IMG/VR virus record: IMGVR_UViG_3300033067_000266
Coordinates: 1-36,308 of that record
Length of the DNA stretch: 36,308 bases
Origin: a virus
Lineage: Duplodnaviria > Caudoviricetes
Direction: 5' to 3' (one strand)
Part shown: piece by piece, positions 3,152 to 35,375 of the stretch
How positions within the stretch are numbered: position 1 is the first letter of the stretch
Layout of the letters: each line of letters starts with the position of its first letter
The notes under the pieces: model-generated
The model's database searches: none
Told to the model about the DNA's origin: nothing
What the model saw: only the letters and a program-made list of their open reading frames with translations
Translations under genes and position numbers: made by a program

Positions 3152-3882
3152 TGGCATCTGCAAACCCATGGTTTCGCATGTACTCCGAGTTTTCGCACGA
3201 CCCGAAAGTACAGATGATGACCGAGGCAATGCAGCGGCGTTACATGATGCTTATGTGTATGCGTTGCAGTAACACGCTTGTAACGTTACATGAAACAGAG
3301 GTGGCGTTTCACCTCCGCATTACAGAGCAAGAACTGGCAGAAACAAAAGCGCTTTTTGTGCAGAAGGGTTTTATCGATTCATCATGGAACCTGCTGAATT
3401 GGGAAAAACGCCAAATGTTGTCAGATACCTCAAACGTTAGAGTGGCTAGGCATAGAGCGCTGCAAAAAGAGAAGCAACAGGAACAAGGTAACGGCGATGT
3501 AACGTTACAGAAACGGAAAAGTAACGTTCTAGATACAGAAGAGATAAGAAGAGATAAGAATAAGAAGAATACAAAGGCAACTGTCGTTGCAACGCCTGAC
3601 GGCGTTTCGCAAAAGGTCTGGTCGGACTTTCTCAAAACTCGAAAAACAAAGGTCACCGACACGGCGATAGACGGCATACGCCGAGAGGCTGAGAGGGCAG
3701 GCATCACCTTGGAGACAGCTTTGGAAACATGCTGCGCCAGAGGCTGGCAGTCGTTCCGTTCCGACTGGCTACGCGAGACAAAGAACGGTCAACCCGTGAA
3801 CAAGCAAACCGCCCTTGAAGACCGAAACCGCGCAGTTGCGGAGCGTTGGGCTAGTCGCGGCATGCTGCCAGGAGCAATCTGA
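3151..3882 (+). CDS. Phage replication initiator (lambda O-analogous)
   Basis: N-terminal WFRMYSEFSHDPKVQMM and NWEKRQ...RVARHR, internal iteron-like repeats, C-terminal VWSDFLKTRK...CCARGWQSF domain. Confidence 0.8.
   Translation: MASANPWFRMYSEFSHDPKVQMMTEAMQRRYMMLMCMRCSNTLVTLHETEVAFHLRITEQELAETKALFVQKGFIDSSWNLLNWEKRQMLSDTSNVRVARHRALQKEKQQEQGNGDVTLQKRKSNVLDTEEIRRDKNKKNTKATVVATPDGVSQKVWSDFLKTRKTKVTDTAIDGIRREAERAGITLETALETCCARGWQSFRSDWLRETKNGQPVNKQTALEDRNRAVAERWASRGMLPGAI
3488..3575. promoter_or_regulatory. Putative replication origin (iterons plus A-rich tract) inside the initiator gene
   Basis: G(T/A)AACG at 3488, 3499, 3510 and 3521 (11-bp period), palindrome TGTAACGTTACA at 3498-3509, then an AGA(T/A)AAG purine tract. 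Confidence 0.6.
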
Positions 3883-14489: not shown

Positions 14490-14801
14490 ATGAGTAAGAA
14501 ACGTGAATACACGCTAGAAGAATCAGTTGTGGCGCTCAAGGGCGGGACCTGTGAGTCTGTAGCGGTTTCCACCACTTCAGCCGTATCGTCTGCCATTTTG
14601 TCTGGCCGCGTGGTGCTGTATAGCAGCGTGGAATGCTTCTTTCGGCAGGGCAGCGGAACACCGGTAGCCCTGGCTACTGGCGTAGATCAAATATTGCCAG
14701 CCTCGACCATGCTGCGGGTTGTCGATATTGAGTCTGGCAACAAGCTTGCATTTAAGACCGCGTCGGGCACAGGTACGGTTTACATTGCGCCAGCAGCATG
14801 A
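14490..14801 (+). CDS. Small beta-rich virion protein (possible spike base)
   Basis: 103 aa ending in GTGTVYI; coupled to the SGNH gene. Confidence 0.6.
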   Translation: MSKKREYTLEESVVALKGGTCESVAVSTTSAVSSAILSGRVVLYSSVECFFRQGSGTPVALATGVDQILPASTMLRVVDIESGNKLAFKTASGTGTVYIAPAA

Positions 14802-16321
14802 GCCTCGGCATTCGGTGTGGGTTGCGCGTTGGTAGCGTGGGTGCGTCAGCGCTTGTTCCAGTATCAAACCCACGCTTTGCGTTGGTCGGTGATTCGCTGA
14901 CCCAGTACGGCAGCAACTACGCAGCGCTGAACACAAAAACATTGACGCGCGACGCGGCGGGTCTTGTTACTGTTGCGTTTACCAATCACGGTATTTTCGG
15001 CACTCCAGACATCAACATCGTCAATTGTTCAGATACATCGTATGAATACTATGGGCCAAAAATAACGATTGATGCCAACAACTTCAGCTACCAGACCAGC
15101 GTAACAGGCTCGGCTGGCAGCATTGCAGGTACTGCGAACACAGCAGCGGTTATCCAAAACCGCATTCAAGGCGTTGGCTATTGGATGTGGCTGCAAAACC
15201 TGATGGGTGGTGGTGGTCGGATGCTGGGGAATTACGGCCAGGGTGGTGACCTAGCCTCTGAAATGGGCGCGGCAGTAACGCTGGCATGCGCTACGGCAGC
15301 CGAGTTTGTCATCATCTGCGCAGGCATCAACGACATTAATAGTGGTGGCGCAAGTGGTGCTACGGTTATTTCTCGTGTTACGACTCACGTTAATACGATC
15401 ATTGCGGCAGGCAAAAAGTGTGTGATTTTGAGCATTACGCCGCTTGGGTCTGCCTACGCGACATCTGGAAAAAACACAGCCACGCTGGATGCCAATGCTG
15501 GCCTATCAGCGCTGGCAAATGGAACAACGATCTTCTATGCTGATGCCCACCAAGACCTAGTAGACACTGGGGCTACACAATTTACAGATGGCCGCGCCTG
15601 GACATGGGCTACATCGGATGGCGTGCATTGGGGGGAACGGGCGGCAAAGCTAATCGCTGGGCGGCTCTATACCGCTATCAGTGCAGCTATCACAGTAACC
15701 AACTGCCTACCAACGGCAAGCGGAAACATGCCGACGATCCCGGGCTACACAGCAATCCGCGAGTATGGGGAGTGGGACTCCACTGGTGGCGGAACGCAGG
15801 GCACAGGATCAACAGGGACACTGGCAACCAAGCAAACTGCACTGAGCAGCAACGCAGCTACCACCATCGTCAATAGTTTGGTTGACCGTGGAAGTAGTGC
15901 GCTTGGCTATTACAACCACCAAGTTATCACGCCCAACGGTGCGCACATTGTTGACAACTACTGGATGACCAACAGCGGAGTGACGATCGGCTCACTTGGG
16001 CTTACGACATCAGACACCGTTATTTTTGCAGTCGAGGTCAGTTTGACAGGTGCCATCGCGGCCAATATGTCGATGTTGTCTCTGGTGATTCAAAGCAACT
16101 CAAGCGGTGCGTTCGGTATTTCGTCCGCTGGTGACTATGTGGCGCTGTCATCGTCTGCTTATCGTAACGACGACCTGACCGATGTCATCCTGATGACTGG
16201 TCCGCTGCTACTCAATGCATCAGTTACCCATTTGCTCTCCAAACTGGAAACGCGTTACACGGCAGCTGGGACAGCCCACACCCTGCGCCAAGGTCGGGTT
16301 GTTTTGTTTAAGAAGGACTGA
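14798..16321 (+). CDS. SGNH/GDSL hydrolase-domain virion protein
   Basis: Blocks LVGDSLT, GQGG, GIND and DGVH, plus a C-terminal beta-sandwich-like region. Confidence 0.88.
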   Translation: MSLGIRCGLRVGSVGASALVPVSNPRFALVGDSLTQYGSNYAALNTKTLTRDAAGLVTVAFTNHGIFGTPDINIVNCSDTSYEYYGPKITIDANNFSYQTSVTGSAGSIAGTANTAAVIQNRIQGVGYWMWLQNLMGGGGRMLGNYGQGGDLASEMGAAVTLACATAAEFVIICAGINDINSGGASGATVISRVTTHVNTIIAAGKKCVILSITPLGSAYATSGKNTATLDANAGLSALANGTTIFYADAHQDLVDTGATQFTDGRAWTWATSDGVHWGERAAKLIAGRLYTAISAAITVTNCLPTASGNMPTIPGYTAIREYGEWDSTGGGTQGTGSTGTLATKQTALSSNAATTIVNSLVDRGSSALGYYNHQVITPNGAHIVDNYWMTNSGVTIGSLGLTTSDTVIFAVEVSLTGAIAANMSMLSLVIQSNSSGAFGISSAGDYVALSSSAYRNDDLTDVILMTGPLLLNASVTHLLSKLETRYTAAGTAHTLRQGRVVLFKKD

Positions 16322-30490: not shown

Positions 30491-31324
30491 TCAAACTCCC
30501 TTTGCCTCAAACGCTGCACGCTGCCTAGCCTCAACGCTCGCCTCTGTCTCAAACGGCCAAGCCGCCATCGGATTGACTACATCCGTGCGCAGATCGCCTA
30601 CTCTGGGTGTGTGGGGTGGGTGCGGCATTGGCAAGCCTGTAACCATGTTGTCGATTTGCGAAAGCACGTCATACAGTCCATCACATACTTCGAAGGTTGG
30701 CGCTTCTTTCTTATAAAACTTTTTCCACAGATAGATTGCGATGTTCTTAGCATATGCGCTGGCATCGTCTGTTGGTTGTGCCAACTTTGACTCTGCGGCT
30801 TTGGCGCGATCCGCCCATTCACCAACAACATCAAGCCAGCCTTGATGGCGAGTGCATGTTGCGATACGGTTGTCGTCAGCATCCCAACGACAAGAACAAC
30901 TTTGTAGCTCTTGGCTTGGCTGCGGGGATGCGCCTGCTGCTGCGTAAAGTGAGTCACCAGAGCGCAGTTTGTTTTCCATGCTGTAGTGGATGGTACCTGT
31001 ACGCTCATTCACGGCTACATCAAAGATGGCCACTGGCTTCTGTTCGACCAACTCCGCAAGCCGCGCCCGTAGCTCTGCATTCTCAGTGCGCAGCGCATCG
31101 TTGCCGATGTGTTTGATGTGGCCCTCAAGCCGTGAAATTTTCCCGAGTGCGTCTTGATAGTGGCCGAAGTAGGGTCCGCTTTTTTCATTGCGCAGCCGCT
31201 CAATCTCAGCCTGTGCAGCCTTCAGGGCGTCGGCGGCCTCTGTGCACCTTGCCCAACAGTAGATAGCATCCCCATCTGCGCCAGCACTGCGCAGTCGGTC
31301 TATCAGGTCTTGTGTGGTGGTCAT
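30491..31324 (-). CDS. Modular phage early protein (Ea22/EaD-like mosaic architecture)
   Basis: DLIDRLR, EAADAL..EIERLR, QKPVA and LYAA linker motifs. Confidence 0.7.
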   Translation of the reverse strand: MTTTQDLIDRLRSAGADGDAIYCWARCTEAADALKAAQAEIERLRNEKSGPYFGHYQDALGKISRLEGHIKHIGNDALRTENAELRARLAELVEQKPVAIFDVAVNERTGTIHYSMENKLRSGDSLYAAAGASPQPSQELQSCSCRWDADDNRIATCTRHQGWLDVVGEWADRAKAAESKLAQPTDDASAYAKNIAIYLWKKFYKKEAPTFEVCDGLYDVLSQIDNMVTGLPMPHPPHTPRVGDLRTDVVNPMAAWPFETEASVEARQRAAFEAKGV

Positions 31325-31557
31325 GTCAGTTCCTTGGTGATTGCGGCGTCGATGGCGGCGTCCATGTCCTGCTCTGTCTGAGCATGCATAACAGCATTCC
31401 ACCCGTCCATTGACGCAGATTCTTCAAATTCGTTAATCCACTGATTGCGCAACCAGCGATACCGCTCTGCATCCTTGCGCAACGTCTCAATCTCAGCTTC
31501 CAGCGCTTCAATCTTGCGCAACGTCGGCAGGTAGTCGCTCGTTTTTTCGTTTGTCAT
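31321..31557 (-). CDS. Phage protein with a DAERYRWLR motif
   Basis: LRKDAERYRWLR...DAAIDAAI; AGGA RBS. Confidence 0.8.
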   Translation of the reverse strand: MTNEKTSDYLPTLRKIEALEAEIETLRKDAERYRWLRNQWINEFEESASMDGWNAVMHAQTEQDMDAAIDAAITKELT

Positions 31558-31572
31558 CTTGCGTCCTTTGTC

Positions 31573-31627
31573 GCTATATTTAACGTAGCAATGTGCCTAT
31601 ATTCCACGAGGGCTAGAGGCTGGTTTT
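31573..31627. repeat. REP-like double-hairpin element resembling Comamonadaceae intergenic repeats
   Basis: Minus strand reads AAAACCAGCCTCTAGCCCTCGTGGAATATAGGCACATTGCTACGTTAAATATAGC; family resemblance is from recall and was not searched. Confidence 0.5.
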
Positions 31628-31638
31628 ATGGGTGGTAG

Positions 31639-31682
31639 CGCCAACTTATAGAGCAGAGGTTGCTCTATACATTGCGTTATAC
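31639..31682 (+). other. Degenerate attC-like (or attI-position) site A
   Basis: CGCCAAC ... tatagagca/tgctctata stem ... GTTATAC; only 44 bp, but its GTT end is complementary to the R'' box of site B. Confidence 0.55.
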
Positions 31683-31689
31683 GACTCAG

Positions 31690-32010
31690 TCATCGCTTTG
31701 GCTCCTGTGCTGCATTAATGCCACGCGCAACGCACCACGCCAGCACGTTCTTGTCGTTCCATTCTTGCGGCACAGTTTCTAGTTGCTGGGCCAAAAGCGC
31801 GTCGTGCTTTTCGATCCAGTGCGCTACTTGCTTTGCGTACATGTTTGCCGCGCTGCGTTCAGTTTCTAGGGCCAACTGCAATGCCTCGCAAGTGGCTTTC
31901 CATTCAAGTGCTTGCTTTCCAAGCGTCAAAACTTCCTCGTGCAAGCGTTGCTGCATTTTCAAAATTGACGGATTGCTGGTTTGGCGCACCAGAATTTGTA
32001 GGTCGGTCAT
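31690..32010 (-). CDS. Coiled-coil hypothetical protein (cassette 1)
   Basis: 106-aa ORF ATGA-coupled to the upstream gene. Confidence 0.7.
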   Translation of the reverse strand: MTDLQILVRQTSNPSILKMQQRLHEEVLTLGKQALEWKATCEALQLALETERSAANMYAKQVAHWIEKHDALLAQQLETVPQEWNDKNVLAWCVARGINAAQEPKR

Positions 32011-32207
32011 TTCCTAGCCTCCAGCATTGCATCGGCAGCTTTGTAAGCTGCTTTCGCGGCGTTTTCGTCGGTTGTGCAGTGGTCGAAGCAAAGTTGCATC
32101 GCCTTCGCTGCGAAATAGTCACGGAGCATCATTCCTGTAGTTCCGGGGTGAATTGGCTCGTTTGCGGGAACCGGAAATGCTGGCCCGCCTGTTTCAATAT
32201 CAACCAT
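32007..32207 (-). CDS. Conserved phage protein of the GPAFP/LRDYFAAKAMQ family (cassette 1)
   Basis: AAGGA RBS; GGPAFP, LRDYFAAKAMQ, AYKAADAMLEAR. Confidence 0.85.
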   Translation of the reverse strand: MVDIETGGPAFPVPANEPIHPGTTGMMLRDYFAAKAMQLCFDHCTTDENAAKAAYKAADAMLEARK

Positions 32208-32234
32208 TTGATATTCCTTAATAGTTCGTCGTTC

Positions 32235-32287
32235 GTATAACAGGTCAATCAAGGCCGACCTGCGGCGGCTTATCTCCGGCGTTAAAC
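32235..32287 (+). other. attC site B
   Basis: GTATAAC-aggtc-AATCAAGG...GCTTATC-tccggc-GTTAAAC. Confidence 0.8.
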
Positions 32288-32291
32288 CGCA

Positions 32292-32543
32292 TCAAATCAG
32301 CGCGTAGCCATCTTCAAATGCTTTTGCAGGGCTATACGATTCGTAGCCATCGGCGTACACCACGTAGTAGCCTCCTGCCTCTGGGTTGTGTTTGCGCTCA
32401 TAGGCTTCGCTCACAATCTTTGGCGCATAGGCTGGGTTTTCAAACGTGAGTACGGTTACTTCCTCGCTTGCAATACTTTTTATCTTTAATGCCCATACGG
32501 TTTTGTGGCTTACGTACTTTGGCATCTCCATTTGTGTGCTCAT
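32292..32543 (-). CDS. Conserved phage protein with a GYYVVY.DGYES.SP..AFE.GY motif (cassette 2)
   Basis: AAGGA RBS; MPKYVSHKTVWALKI N-terminus. Confidence 0.82.
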   Translation of the reverse strand: MSTQMEMPKYVSHKTVWALKIKSIASEEVTVLTFENPAYAPKIVSEAYERKHNPEAGGYYVVYADGYESYSPAKAFEDGYALI

Positions 32544-32570
32544 GTTCATTCCTTTTGTTGTAAAAATTCG

Positions 32571-32624
32571 GTTTAACTCAACGCTCGGCACGGATGCTCC
32601 GCACCGGGCAGCTATGCGTTATGG
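32571..32624 (+). other. attC site C
   Basis: GTTTAAC-tcaac-GCTCGGCA..cgga/tccg..GGGCAGC-tatgc-GTTATGG. Confidence 0.72.
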
Positions 32625-32897
32625 CGCATGCGCAGCAACCAGCGCCCGTACCGTTGCGACAAACTCCGCCCGCGTTTTTGGTGTTGGCGCTTCTCGAATT
32701 TCGCAAAGTGCCCACCGGTCAAAGTCGGCATATGTATCACCGCACTGGAGCATGTTGTAGCAATTCACTCGCCACTCGCGCCCATGTCCATGCAGATAAA
32801 ACCATCGGTATCCAAGGCCGCGCTTGTCACATCCCTTGTCTCGTGGGCGCAGCCGTGCGGCCCGGCACCAGTCTTTCCATTGCTTTGGTAATTTCAT
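32619..32897 (-). CDS. Hypothetical protein (cassette 3)
   Basis: GGAG RBS, MKLPKQWKDWC; the TAA stop lies within the core of site C. Confidence 0.75.
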   Translation of the reverse strand: MKLPKQWKDWCRAARLRPRDKGCDKRGLGYRWFYLHGHGREWRVNCYNMLQCGDTYADFDRWALCEIREAPTPKTRAEFVATVRALVAAHAP

Positions 32898-32921
32898 GTT
32901 CTTTCTCCAATTAAAAATGCG

Positions 32922-33023
32922 CCATAACATTTCGTTCCATGCGACCCAACACGGCGGGTCGCGCTTGTCTCGTTTACCCGGCACCGTTGCGCCGTGTCGG
33001 TCGCCTGAACTCAGGCGTTAGGT
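32922..33023 (+). other. attC site D (102 bp)
   Basis: CCATAAC-atttc-GTTCCATG-cgacc..acacggcg...cgccgtgt..ggtcg-CCTGAAC-tcaggc-GTTAGGT. Confidence 0.88.
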
Positions 33024-33352
33024 TGCTTCCCGCACTCGCCGCGCAGTTCTTCCATGCACTGCCACAAACGGCCGTCGCCGTTCTTCTGGTGCGTCGTGGT
33101 GTCCCATGCGTCCATTGCGCGCTGCATGACGTGCTGCTGGCGCTCAATCATGGCGGCGGCTTGCGACAAGGCCATCTCAAGGCCCGCGATCACGTCCGCG
33201 CTATTTGTGCCGTCCTGCGGGCTCTTGGCATACAGCGGCTGCTGCTCAATGGCAAGGTCTGTGCCCCACTTCCAGGGCGGAACCTCAGTCAACCGCCACT
33301 GGAATTTGTCCACGCCCATCGTAGGGCGGTAGCGCCACGCCACGATGTTCAT
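33011..33352 (-). CDS. Hypothetical phage protein (cassette 4); C-terminus PNA* encoded by site D
   Basis: MNIVAWRYRP, QPLY; ATGA overlap. Confidence 0.7.
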   Translation of the reverse strand: MNIVAWRYRPTMGVDKFQWRLTEVPPWKWGTDLAIEQQPLYAKSPQDGTNSADVIAGLEMALSQAAAMIERQQHVMQRAMDAWDTTTHQKNGDGRLWQCMEELRGECGKQPNA

Positions 33353-33573
33353 TTCGTCACCTGCGGCGGTGGCGTCTTGCACTCGGCCTGCAAGAACGCA
33401 ATGGTCGGCGCCTCTTTGCGCAGCGCGTAATACTCCACCTGCACCTTGGCGCTGCCGATCATCTTCCCTGCGAGGTTCGCCAGTTCGGCGGCTTCGTTCG
33501 GCTTAATTTCTCCGGCCTTTAGCTTCTCAAAAGTCAAGGCTAGCTCTTTTCTCAATTCGTCGCAGTTTTGCAT
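33349..33573 (-). CDS. Conserved small phage protein (cassette 4)
   Basis: GGAG upstream; MQNCDELRKEL...ANLAGKMIGSAKVQVEY. Confidence 0.8.
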   Translation of the reverse strand: MQNCDELRKELALTFEKLKAGEIKPNEAAELANLAGKMIGSAKVQVEYYALRKEAPTIAFLQAECKTPPPQVTK

Positions 33574-33932
33574 TTCCAAATCTCCCGTTTGAGTTTCAAC
33601 AATTCGCGGTGCGCGTCTACAAGTGGCTCCGGTATCTGCGCGTTTGGTATTGAGTACACCTGCGCAATCTTCCTTCTCACATAGCCCTCTGTCAGCGTGT
33701 CGCGTTCTTTCTTTGCTTGCGCTTTCACCTTGTCGGGGTTTGCGGCCTTGTACTTCGCTTTTATCGCATTGCTTCTGGCTCTGTTTTCCGTTCGCCATGC
33801 AAGCTGCCGCTGCCGTTCCTCGTCAAGATGCAAAGCCCTGTACGCGGCGTTTCGTGCGCTTATCCGATCTTTGTTTGCCGCGTAGTAAGCTTTCCCATTT
33901 GCTGCCTTTTCCGCTTTGTCTTTGTATGGCAT
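33552..33932 (-). CDS. Basic helical phage protein (cassette 4)
   Basis: MPYKDK..YYAANKDRI...LTEGYVRR...LKLKR. Confidence 0.78.
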   Translation of the reverse strand: MPYKDKAEKAANGKAYYAANKDRISARNAAYRALHLDEERQRQLAWRTENRARSNAIKAKYKAANPDKVKAQAKKERDTLTEGYVRRKIAQVYSIPNAQIPEPLVDAHRELLKLKREIWKCKTATN

Positions 33933-33945
33933 GGCTCACCCCATT

Positions 33946-34003
33946 ACATAACAGGTCGTTCGATCAAATTCGCTTCGCTCATTGCTCAACTCCAGCGTTA
34001 CTC
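33946..34003 (+). other. attC site E
   Basis: ACATAAC-aggtc-GTTCGATC...GCTCAAC-tccagc-GTTACTC. Confidence 0.82.
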
Positions 34004-34123
34004 ATATCTACCCCTAACCCACCACACACACCGCGCCAAGCCCTTAGCCGCGCAGTACACAGCCCAGCACGCCCACAAAAAGGGTATGCCGATGAAGAAG
34101 CAGAAGGCTAGGCGGCGGGTCAT
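33998..34123 (-). CDS. 41-aa membrane microprotein; its TAA stop is in the core of site E
   Basis: MTRRLAFCFFIGIPFLWACWAVYCAAKGLARCVWWVRGRYE; ATGA overlap. Confidence 0.6.
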   Translation of the reverse strand: MTRRLAFCFFIGIPFLWACWAVYCAAKGLARCVWWVRGRYE

Positions 34124-34349: not shown

Positions 34350-35375
34350 TTAATCTGTTTGCAACTCGTGTAGCGCCTTGTCTTTTTCTTCAATATCTTT
34401 TCGATGCTTGTTCAGTGCGGTCCTAATTTTGGATGGCAACTTTCTCCAAACATAGGCACGTTCATCGTTCCCGGTATCTACAACTCCGTCATACTCACCG
34501 TAAGCGCCGATCAAGTCGTCATTGTTGAAGTGGTCAATGATTGCGCCAGCAACAGCCTCTAAAACCTGTTTTATATTGACTGGCAAAGAATCCCCAATGC
34601 CATCCATCGCGCCTTGCTTAACCGCAATTACCTGGCCCGTATTTACAGGCACAACCGGCGCAAGCTCTGCCAATCCTTCTCCGGAATCCACATTCAAATG
34701 ATGGATAGCTGTATCGAGTCGTTCAGTTTTAGGCCAGTATTTGTAAGCCTGTTTGACACAGGTTTTTTTGATCATTTCGCCTTCGTCAGACAGCCATGGG
34801 CCACCACTGCGTGACTTCTTTTCTACGTAGGCTTTCCATGCACTTGAGCGGTCCCGAATAGCGTAAACGTCTGCAATCGTCATCGTGTGAGTTAGGTATT
34901 CACCGTCTGCTGTTTTGATGACAACGTACACACCAACAATCTCGCCACGATCTGTTGAGAACGGGTTAAAACCGTGGTTTGGAGGCTTGTCGTATCCCAT
35001 CAGTTGGAAGGTGTCTCCTTTGTAAACAATCGCAGCCTGCGCCCATTTAACAGACCCTGATTCCATCGCCAAGTCCATCAGCCCCATGTAGCTAATGTCT
35101 AGGCAAATTTTCTTGTCCCGTGGCACAAGATAGGCTTGCTTCTTCGCAGGGTTCAGGCTTAGGCCGATGGCTGCAATGTTGGTAACGGCATCGACAACCG
35201 ACTGACGGTTATTCATTGCTGTAGACATTGCATAGTCGTTCGCCCCGAGTGCCTGAATTGCAAACCCAGCTTCGCGCTCAAAGTTAATATCTTTGGCAGA
35301 CAGAACGGCATTGAACTGCTCTCGGACGCCGTAAATGTCGCCTGACAGCGTGGTTAGTGCGGTTGATACGTTCAT
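34350..35375 (-). CDS. recT: RecT/Red-beta-family single-strand annealing recombinase
   Basis: GLSLNPAKKQAYLVPR, ISYMGL, PW.SD.GEM.KKT.VK.AYKYWP. Confidence 0.92.
   Translation of the reverse strand: MNVSTALTTLSGDIYGVREQFNAVLSAKDINFEREAGFAIQALGANDYAMSTAMNNRQSVVDAVTNIAAIGLSLNPAKKQAYLVPRDKKICLDISYMGLMDLAMESGSVKWAQAAIVYKGDTFQLMGYDKPPNHGFNPFSTDRGEIVGVYVVIKTADGEYLTHTMTIADVYAIRDRSSAWKAYVEKKSRSGGPWLSDEGEMIKKTCVKQAYKYWPKTERLDTAIHHLNVDSGEGLAELAPVVPVNTGQVIAVKQGAMDGIGDSLPVNIKQVLEAVAGAIIDHFNNDDLIGAYGEYDGVVDTGNDERAYVWRKLPSKIRTALNKHRKDIEEKDKALHELQTD

Follow-up and report, generated by a model that had tools for sequence, protein, structure and literature searches.

Five palindromic sites at the gene boundaries of a phage early operon raise the question of whether a virus can gain, lose and reorder genes with an integron recombinase that it does not itself encode. 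The sites lie in IMG/VR virus record IMGVR_UViG_3300033067_000266 (Duplodnaviria; Caudoviricetes), all 36,308 nt of which form the window analysed here (completeness 94% according to CheckV). We consider it likely that the locus is an integrase-less integron in which an attI site (A) heads four reversed, attC-bounded cassettes (B to E) that would be moved at the G/TT of the core by an integron integrase (IntI) supplied in trans by the host. By definition the array is a CALIN, a group of attC sites without an integron integrase, with at least two attC sites within a few kilobases and no intI nearby. It is not a complete integron, since no intI adjoins attI, and would work like an integron whose enzyme comes from outside. 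The array comprises the following features.

31554..31645, no strand: non-coding leader separating attI from the adjoining early gene (which starts at 31557), also retained in other phages
31640..31682, + strand: site A, attI-type docking site, crossover G 31676
31677..32281, + strand: cassette ending in attC B, 605 bp, 9-nt end complementarity
32007-32213 and 31690-32010, − strand: the two genes of the B cassette (open reading frames, ORFs), the first matching phrog_2201
32235..32287, + strand: attC B, crossover G 32281, 33.3 bits with the covariance model
32282..32618, + strand: cassette ending in attC C, 337 bp, 9-nt end complementarity, gene 32292-32546 (− strand)
32571..32624, + strand: attC C, degenerate, crossover G 32618, 13 bits (E = 0.38)
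32619..33017, + strand: cassette ending in attC D, 399 bp, 12-nt complementary ends, gene 32619-32909 (− strand)
32922..33023, + strand: attC D, crossover G 33017, 43.6 bits
32282..33017, + strand: 736-bp unit of cassettes C and D, apparently absent from part of a natural population
33018..33997, + strand: composite cassette ending in attC E, 980 bp, ends not self-complementary (4 nt)
33552-33932, 33349-33573 and 33011-33382, − strand: the three genes of the E cassette
33946..34003, + strand: attC E, last site, weak stem, crossover G 33997, 32.2 bits

Sites of the array

For the attC search, 40 training stretches beside intI genes were taken from genomes belonging to the family of G002, a Hydrogenophaga metagenome-assembled genome (MAG). 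A strand-asymmetric attC rule gave 206 bacterial sites, 205 of them on the strand expected from intI, and the covariance model was built from bacterial sites only (57 non-redundant short ones out of 196 scoring at least 13). Applied to the whole window, this model recovered D, B and E, each with an E value of 1e-5 or better, and placed C just above three chance matches; all four are on the + strand. The scores of a second, arm-profile model were 52.2 for D, 40.7 for B, 12.0 for E, 5.5 for C and below 3 for A, and with a maximum of 12.6 among 25 simulated genomes E and C are not significant genome-wide by this measure. Sites B, D and E have the anatomy of attC: R'' (AAC), a 5-nt spacer, L'' with an extrahelical C, a stem, L', a 5-8-nt spacer and R' (GTT). 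The circular form of D is predicted to fold at −33.4 kcal/mol (shuffles, −16.9 ± 2.7) and that of C at −18.8 kcal/mol. Folding of linear sites gave alternative structures and was dropped as evidence, as was a first, loose attC rule with more than 100 chance matches. The family of attC B, extra G included, is present in other phages, its left arm standing with other flanks in 14 viral stretches, and contigs of other sequencing runs depart from site C immediately after GTTA.

The preliminary description of this DNA had presented all five sites as members of one attC array. Each lies where it was placed, and the covariance model that had been proposed as a check upholds B, D and E as attC, backs C weakly at 13 bits and leaves A unmatched. 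The 3' end of the second E gene (33349-33390) also resembles part of attC B and is perhaps a decayed attC; at four other loci (L397, L407, L415 and L417) an intact attC follows the homologous second E gene.

Judged by its sequence, site A is an attI of the Burkholderiales integron type and not an attC. A matrix of 24 bacterial first-cassette 5' ends, collected without site A and including four ends that resemble it, ranks A first of the 1248 GTT sites in the window (18.2, the next being 14.4). Compared with four bacterial sites, three of them beside intI, A has 28-29 of 33 letters in common, 21 of which are fixed by the search pattern. In bacteria this pattern has 26 matches in 22 of 401 genomes of the G002 family, with no control match among those listed. 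An intI match starts 85-177 nt away on the opposite strand at 17 of the 26, and the longer ORF of the first cassette is forward in all 18 scorable cases. The same pattern occurs in 14 viral stretches, some of them near-duplicates, with no intI within 2.5 kb of any; here the longer ORF of the first cassette is reversed in nine of ten scorable cases. One position of the motif is G in 11 of the 14 viral copies versus A in 25 of the 26 bacterial ones.

The behaviour of the module among phages is consistent with a docking site. Its leader is retained at 80-83% identity in L406/L453, L432/L450, L447 and L455, and the A module precedes different first cassettes in the window, L453, L447, L450 and L455. 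Four other phages have the leader upstream of A, lack its AAC and carry differing cassettes from G/TT onward. In the window the first cassette begins at the G/TT of A, and its left end complements its own R'' over 9 nt. An attI has two upstream direct repeats that serve as accessory sites for IntI; by eye, the proximal repeat is present in A, and the distal one, clear in the bacterial sites, is degenerate. The attI assignment strengthens the case for integron-type recombination. A 9-nt complement at 30696 to the sequence left of A falls in the middle of an ORF and was treated as chance.

Further observations concern the surroundings of attI-type sites elsewhere. Although their upstream sequences are unlike, most of the viral loci L443-L456 have the start of an early gene 115-119 nt left of the attI cut, and at several of them the first-cassette gene reads through attI to a stop 30 nt past the cut. 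Five of these loci (L444, L445, L446, L449 and L456) have the motif CTG-N10-CAG about 70 nt left of the cut, which we take to resemble a LexA box and which is absent in the window. L447 (2608-3747) and L406 (1895-2080) carry the attI module with the same upstream flank; in L447 this flank belongs to a phage integrase gene, whose 3' end it forms and whose product has an arm-binding domain; the array of L406 ends at an excisionase-like HTH_17 gene. Nine bacterial attI-type sites (L463, L464, L468-L470, L473 and L480-L482) have no intI match within 1.5 kb; six of the nine have attC downstream, so that orphan attI arrays appear in chromosomes too.

Apparent cassette exchange in relatives and in a river population

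The left ends of the cassettes carry the first sign of movement. As noted earlier, they complement the R'' box of their own cassette; the match is exact in three cassettes, over 9, 9 and 12 nt, compared with 4 nt within the same site. Among random pairs from 27 phage cassettes, complementarity of at least 9 nt occurs in 2.7% and of at least 12 nt in 0.3%, and 134 of the 237 bacterial cassettes have a footprint of at least 9 nt, as do 14 of the 27 phage cassettes. The fourth cassette (33018-33997) has none, with 4 nt only. The footprint is symmetrical and does not by itself tell which gene an attC travels with.

Comparison with related phages, which the preliminary description had proposed as a check, places changes of gene content at G/TT junctions. 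Different phages carry homologues of cassette C (78-91% identity) whose alignment edges lie 5 nt or less from a crossover: at the attC end in L082/L102 and L114/L121, at the far end in L091/L103 and at both in L121/L132. In 18 metagenome stretches that contain the first 24 nt of the E cassette, the 12-mer just upstream takes 13 different forms, most of them attC arms and some attI-like, and in L406 both A and the E cassette are kept, with other cassettes between them. The unit from the TT of one core to the G of the next thus moves whole, except in cases of exchanged attC bodies. No locus came up when viral sequences were scanned with the D protein, so cassette D has no comparative breakpoints of its own.

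One relative calls for a different description. L455 (2531-2815) and the window (32282-32577) share a cassette left end, leader and R'' box around unrelated genes, which suggests that cassette frames are reused by different genes. L455 was consequently rejected as an instance of cassette C at attI, since the ends of C surround a different gene there, and for the same reason a joint of 31630 to 32279 in run X8 was not counted as loss of cassette B.

The region is contained in whole or in part in 20 metagenome runs, eight of which were compared as contigs, which drop rare variants. In X3, a river sample, one contig (depth 74.7) joins 32277 to 33014 and skips 736 nt, exactly as far as the crossover G of D (33017) lies from that of B (32281); seven letters at the joint fit both sides, and the crossover window includes the cut site. 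Among window-identical contigs in X3, the depth is 137.7 on the left flank and 123.2 on the right, 149.3 and 131.3 over E, 51.8 over C and 55.6 over D, each a sum over several organisms and not a share of cells; D and the joint together (55.6 + 74.7) approximate the depth of the flanks. The E contig begins at 33014 and the D contig finishes at 33043, as a fork there would give. Depths of C and D are 38 and 37 versus 56 in X2, and 104 and 113 versus 125-147 in X1, the joint being listed in neither run. The joint is apparently an excision product, and the contigs are compatible with loss and with gain of the pair.

Several points weigh against integron-type movement as we read it. For site A, the matrix score was reached by two of 60 simulated genomes, and the search pattern was itself built from A and the four bacterial sites with 21 of 33 letters fixed. 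Site E folds at −3.5 kcal/mol, no better than shuffles, and the most stable predicted fold of B is an alternative to the attC hairpin. Genes of the array are frequently found without attC (at 66 of the 80 loci of the C gene and at 20 of the 39 of an E gene), and attC sites accompany only one of 80 viral and two of 23 genome RecT loci. E genes occur with three different attC bodies (window, L406 and L409), and X17 and X2 contain an E-type body that carries a C-type right end. The X3 joint is listed in one of the eight runs; X1-X3 belong to one study, and X1 may be the source sample. Its short side measures 22 letters, with what lies between recorded as not known, both of its halves (a B-type attC and an E-type left end) are common in other phages, and joints of this kind often stem from other organisms. 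Its seven shared letters mean that microhomology recombination would give the same product. Circular junctions, which had been suggested earlier as a sign of excision, are listed in none of the eight runs, for which contigs only were available. Finally, the choice of host relies on RecT matches of about 50% identity together with the attI type.

Swapped bodies, reused ends and attC-less loci indicate that cassettes are also remade or re-framed by some second route. Candidates are crossover on the top strand, homology at shared ends and repeated formation from free phage genes. An alternative reading holds that the sites are of integron descent and now passive, the swaps being made by phage RecT-type annealing or by replication slippage through short shared ends of the attC family. 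The recT gene 350 bp upstream, the seven letters common to B and D at the joint, the exchange of bodies and frames between genes (L455; L409/L406) and a report of integrase-free excision of small cassettes, ascribed to slippage (PMC5371416, available in part), are all in keeping with it. However, B and D differ across most of their length, and breakpoints in relatives cluster at G/TT, also after attI, where the upstream sequence lacks homology (13 12-mers in 18 stretches). Moreover, passive linkers would have no need for an attI at the head, for one polarity in 74 multi-site loci or for an extrahelical C. On balance we regard this alternative as unlikely and retain IntI-mediated movement as the preferred reading.

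Reversed genes and possible sources of a recombinase

The top strand of the attC sites is the + strand and all seven cassette genes lie on the − strand, an antisense arrangement that the preliminary description had missed. Searches with RecT, the cassette C gene and one E gene retrieved loci whose attC sites were antisense to the query gene in 50 of 50 and 64 of 64 cases. A gene-independent attC pattern yielded 119 viral stretches, 70 of them with scorable cassettes, of which 62 are reversed, four forward and four unclear. A ribosome-binding site with a start codon was found at the reversed end in 150 of 230 viral cassettes and at the forward end in 15, and polarity is single in all 74 multi-site viral loci. 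In bacterial cassettes the forward ORF is the longer in 210 of 237. The array does not have the cassette promoter (Pc) arrangement of an integron, its genes all being on the strand opposite to the top-strand reading, and a promoter-like match on the + strand (31551-31580) is within chance (five found, 4.6 expected).

The viral and bacterial pools sampled are nearly separate: homologues in another viral locus exist for 95 of 309 viral cassettes, and matches among 236 bacterial cassettes for two. Of 140 sampled viral cassette ORFs, 17 have Pfam matches, namely 11 DNA-modifying enzymes, Lar, Acb2/Tad1 and four others. With 13 of the 17 thus falling to DNA-modifying enzymes, Lar and Acb2/Tad1, small phage genes in their hundreds would be likely candidates for counter-defence. 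These counts bear on the idea that the window holds a piece of bacterial integron captured once and now decaying, with the coverage differences reflecting mixed related phages. The weakness of sites C and E and the pooling of several organisms in metagenome depths fit such a capture; against it, the genes are of phage type, run in reverse and hardly occur in the bacterial cassettes sampled (2/309), the layout recurs in dozens of viral contigs, and relatives carry other cassettes between the same anchors. We judge it very improbable. One viral contig, L295 (2501-4515), does have a full intI, an attI and an attC; its attI presumably resembles attI1, and the contig is probably a captured bacterial integron.

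No function could be named for the cassette genes of the window. The C protein is predicted to be a stand-alone oligonucleotide/oligosaccharide-binding (OB) fold (predicted local distance difference test score, pLDDT, of 92), with the N-terminal domain of Dec from phage L as its best fold match (E = 3.5e-4, Z = 7.7, r.m.s.d. 3.1 over 80 residues). It has 266 homologues, with no functional name among the 120 listed and their clusters unnamed, and is present in two of 401 bacterial genomes. A role as a sponge of the Acb4/Tad2 type, though still conceivable, gained no support, the best matches being OB folds. For the D protein, 76 homologues include none with a functional name, and the fold search gave no clear match (best Z = 5.0). 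A PADLOC match to Cas8f was disregarded as weak (E = 0.006, 36 residues).

The remainder of the genome is that of a lambdoid phage in its early genes (RecT, O-like, NinG and NinB), and its + strand encodes terminase, portal, head, ejection and lysis functions. The cassette array belongs to the early operon that runs leftward and follows recT at a distance of 350 bp downstream.

34350..35375, − strand: RecT-like annealing protein (PF03837, phrog_148), upstream of the array in the same early operon

Both contig ends (1-503 and 36139-36308) fall within the same 12-nt tandem repeat of one gene, phrog_18326. The genome therefore appears circular: the record, nominally linear, probably represents a closed molecule opened within a repeat whose copy number is uncertain. 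PF00589 has no match in the 36,308-nt window, and tblastn of the window with an IntI and a phage integrase gave nothing below E = 1, in agreement with the earlier remark that no tyrosine recombinase was to be seen. Among the genes of the window neither a repressor nor an integrase was recognised.

The recombinase would accordingly have to come from elsewhere. The family that holds G002 has IntI above the cut-off in 104 of 251 genomes, and a MAG that holds a related array (L165) carries IntI, an association for which binning may mislead. Rather than from the host chromosome, the enzyme might come from a co-infecting phage, a prophage or a plasmid, or be a tyrosine recombinase other than IntI. 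A full intI does occur in one of the 119 viral attC loci (L295), the A module of L447 follows a phage integrase gene, and the difference at one attI position (G in 11/14, A in 25/26) suggests a separate phage lineage of the site. Nevertheless, this type of attI adjoins chromosomal intI (17/26) in a family in which IntI is common (104/251), five array-bearing viral contigs (11-85% complete) have no match to PF00589, and most viral loci have a gene other than an integrase to the left of the attI motif. Such a source thus seems distinctly unlikely, and a chromosomal IntI acting in trans is the one that we prefer.

The mechanism might be as follows. The host would be a Burkholderiales bacterium whose IntI recognises the attI type of site A. 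The bottom (−) strand of each attC would fold and be recombined; the bottom strand is reported to recombine about 1000-fold more than the top, and more so on the lagging-strand template (PMC5371416, available in part), and IntI1 recombined five of six phage attC sites according to the part of Qi et al. (2023; PMC9892861) available. The reversed genes would be read from the leftward early transcript of the phage, so that no Pc is needed. Because site C is degenerate, C and D may exit together through recombination of B with D. If the palindromic repeats in the O-like gene mark an origin there, at about 3.3-3.5 kb, the bottom strands would serve as lagging-strand template at the leftward fork, an orientation in which excision is favoured. 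Reversal would also leave host defence cassettes that land at attI unexpressed and might in this way keep the two cassette pools apart.

Side observations on the genome touch the origin and the early/late boundary. The O-like replication gene contains a 12-nt palindrome (3279-3533) in two exact copies and one degenerate copy, which are likely iterons. GC skew reverses near 3 kb, where it does not separate effects of replication from those of transcription. A YdcK-type β-solenoid repeat protein (784-1536, − strand) is encoded near the switch between leftward and rightward genes, and a lipase-like protein of 507 residues (14798-16321, + strand; phrog_6102) amid the virion genes. Rfam had nothing in the window at gathering scores, promoter and terminator scans gave counts at chance level, and blastn of 31500-34100 against 50,697 GenBank phage records returned no match.

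We lean slightly towards a broader proposal, a mirror-image integron economy shared by many phages, which would have their own attI lineage and their own reversed cassette pool, reshuffled by host IntI. DNA-modification and other counter-defence genes would be prominent among its annotated cassettes, and reshuffling would be fast enough for a river population to be mixed, with and without a given pair of cassettes. Reversal would both let the early promoter read the cassettes and place the attC bottom strands for high turnover.

Comparison with known systems

Integrons are regarded as bacterial tools and have recently come to be seen as libraries of anti-phage defence in two bioRxiv preprints, as far as their available parts indicate. 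If phages indeed carry an attI and a reversed pool serviced by the host enzyme, the same recombinase would arm both sides, and part of the mosaicism of phage early regions would have a site-specific mechanism. The window offers a short case that can be tested directly: its attI is defined, two of its attC sites are good, and one joint looks like a natural product of excision.

Clusters of attC in phages are known already: CALINs have been described in virulent phages such as Tetrasphaera phage TJE1, with 17 CALINs in 10,705 genomes according to the available part of Qi et al. (2023; PMC9892861). That part presents no turnover of cassettes between phages, and the sole attI-headed CALIN described in it, in Shewanella prophage M16-3, stands in an element that also carries intI. 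Our literature search, which lay mostly outside subscription journals, found no earlier report in which phage cassettes are reversed, a phage carries an orphan attI or cassettes are excised in a natural population. The window resembles the phage CALINs of that study, as far as available, in having an attC cluster between small genes and no intI and, for the class as a whole, DNA methyltransferases among the cassette genes. However, the three attC sites of TJE1 are on the same strand as its genes, whereas the genes of the window are antisense, and the array of the window is headed by an attI, unlike CALINs of the TJE1 type.

Another parallel is with the sedentary chromosomal integrons of Burkholderiales (intI-attI-Pc-cassettes), with which the window shares the attI type, the anatomy of attC, the G/TT unit and the end footprint. 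It differs from them in being without intI, in an early gene that starts 119 nt left of the cut where bacterial intI starts at about 170 nt, in a degenerate upstream direct repeat, in reversed genes and in a nearly separate gene pool. A likeness also exists to insertion at attG sites and the resulting single attC sites lacking integron integrase (SALINs), in which IntI acting at distant sites leaves integrase-less cassettes (Loot et al., bioRxiv 10.1101/2022.09.11.507474, available in part). There, as far as that text goes, the attG sites share only a GWT core, whereas the attI-type sequence of site A is conserved and recurs among many phages.

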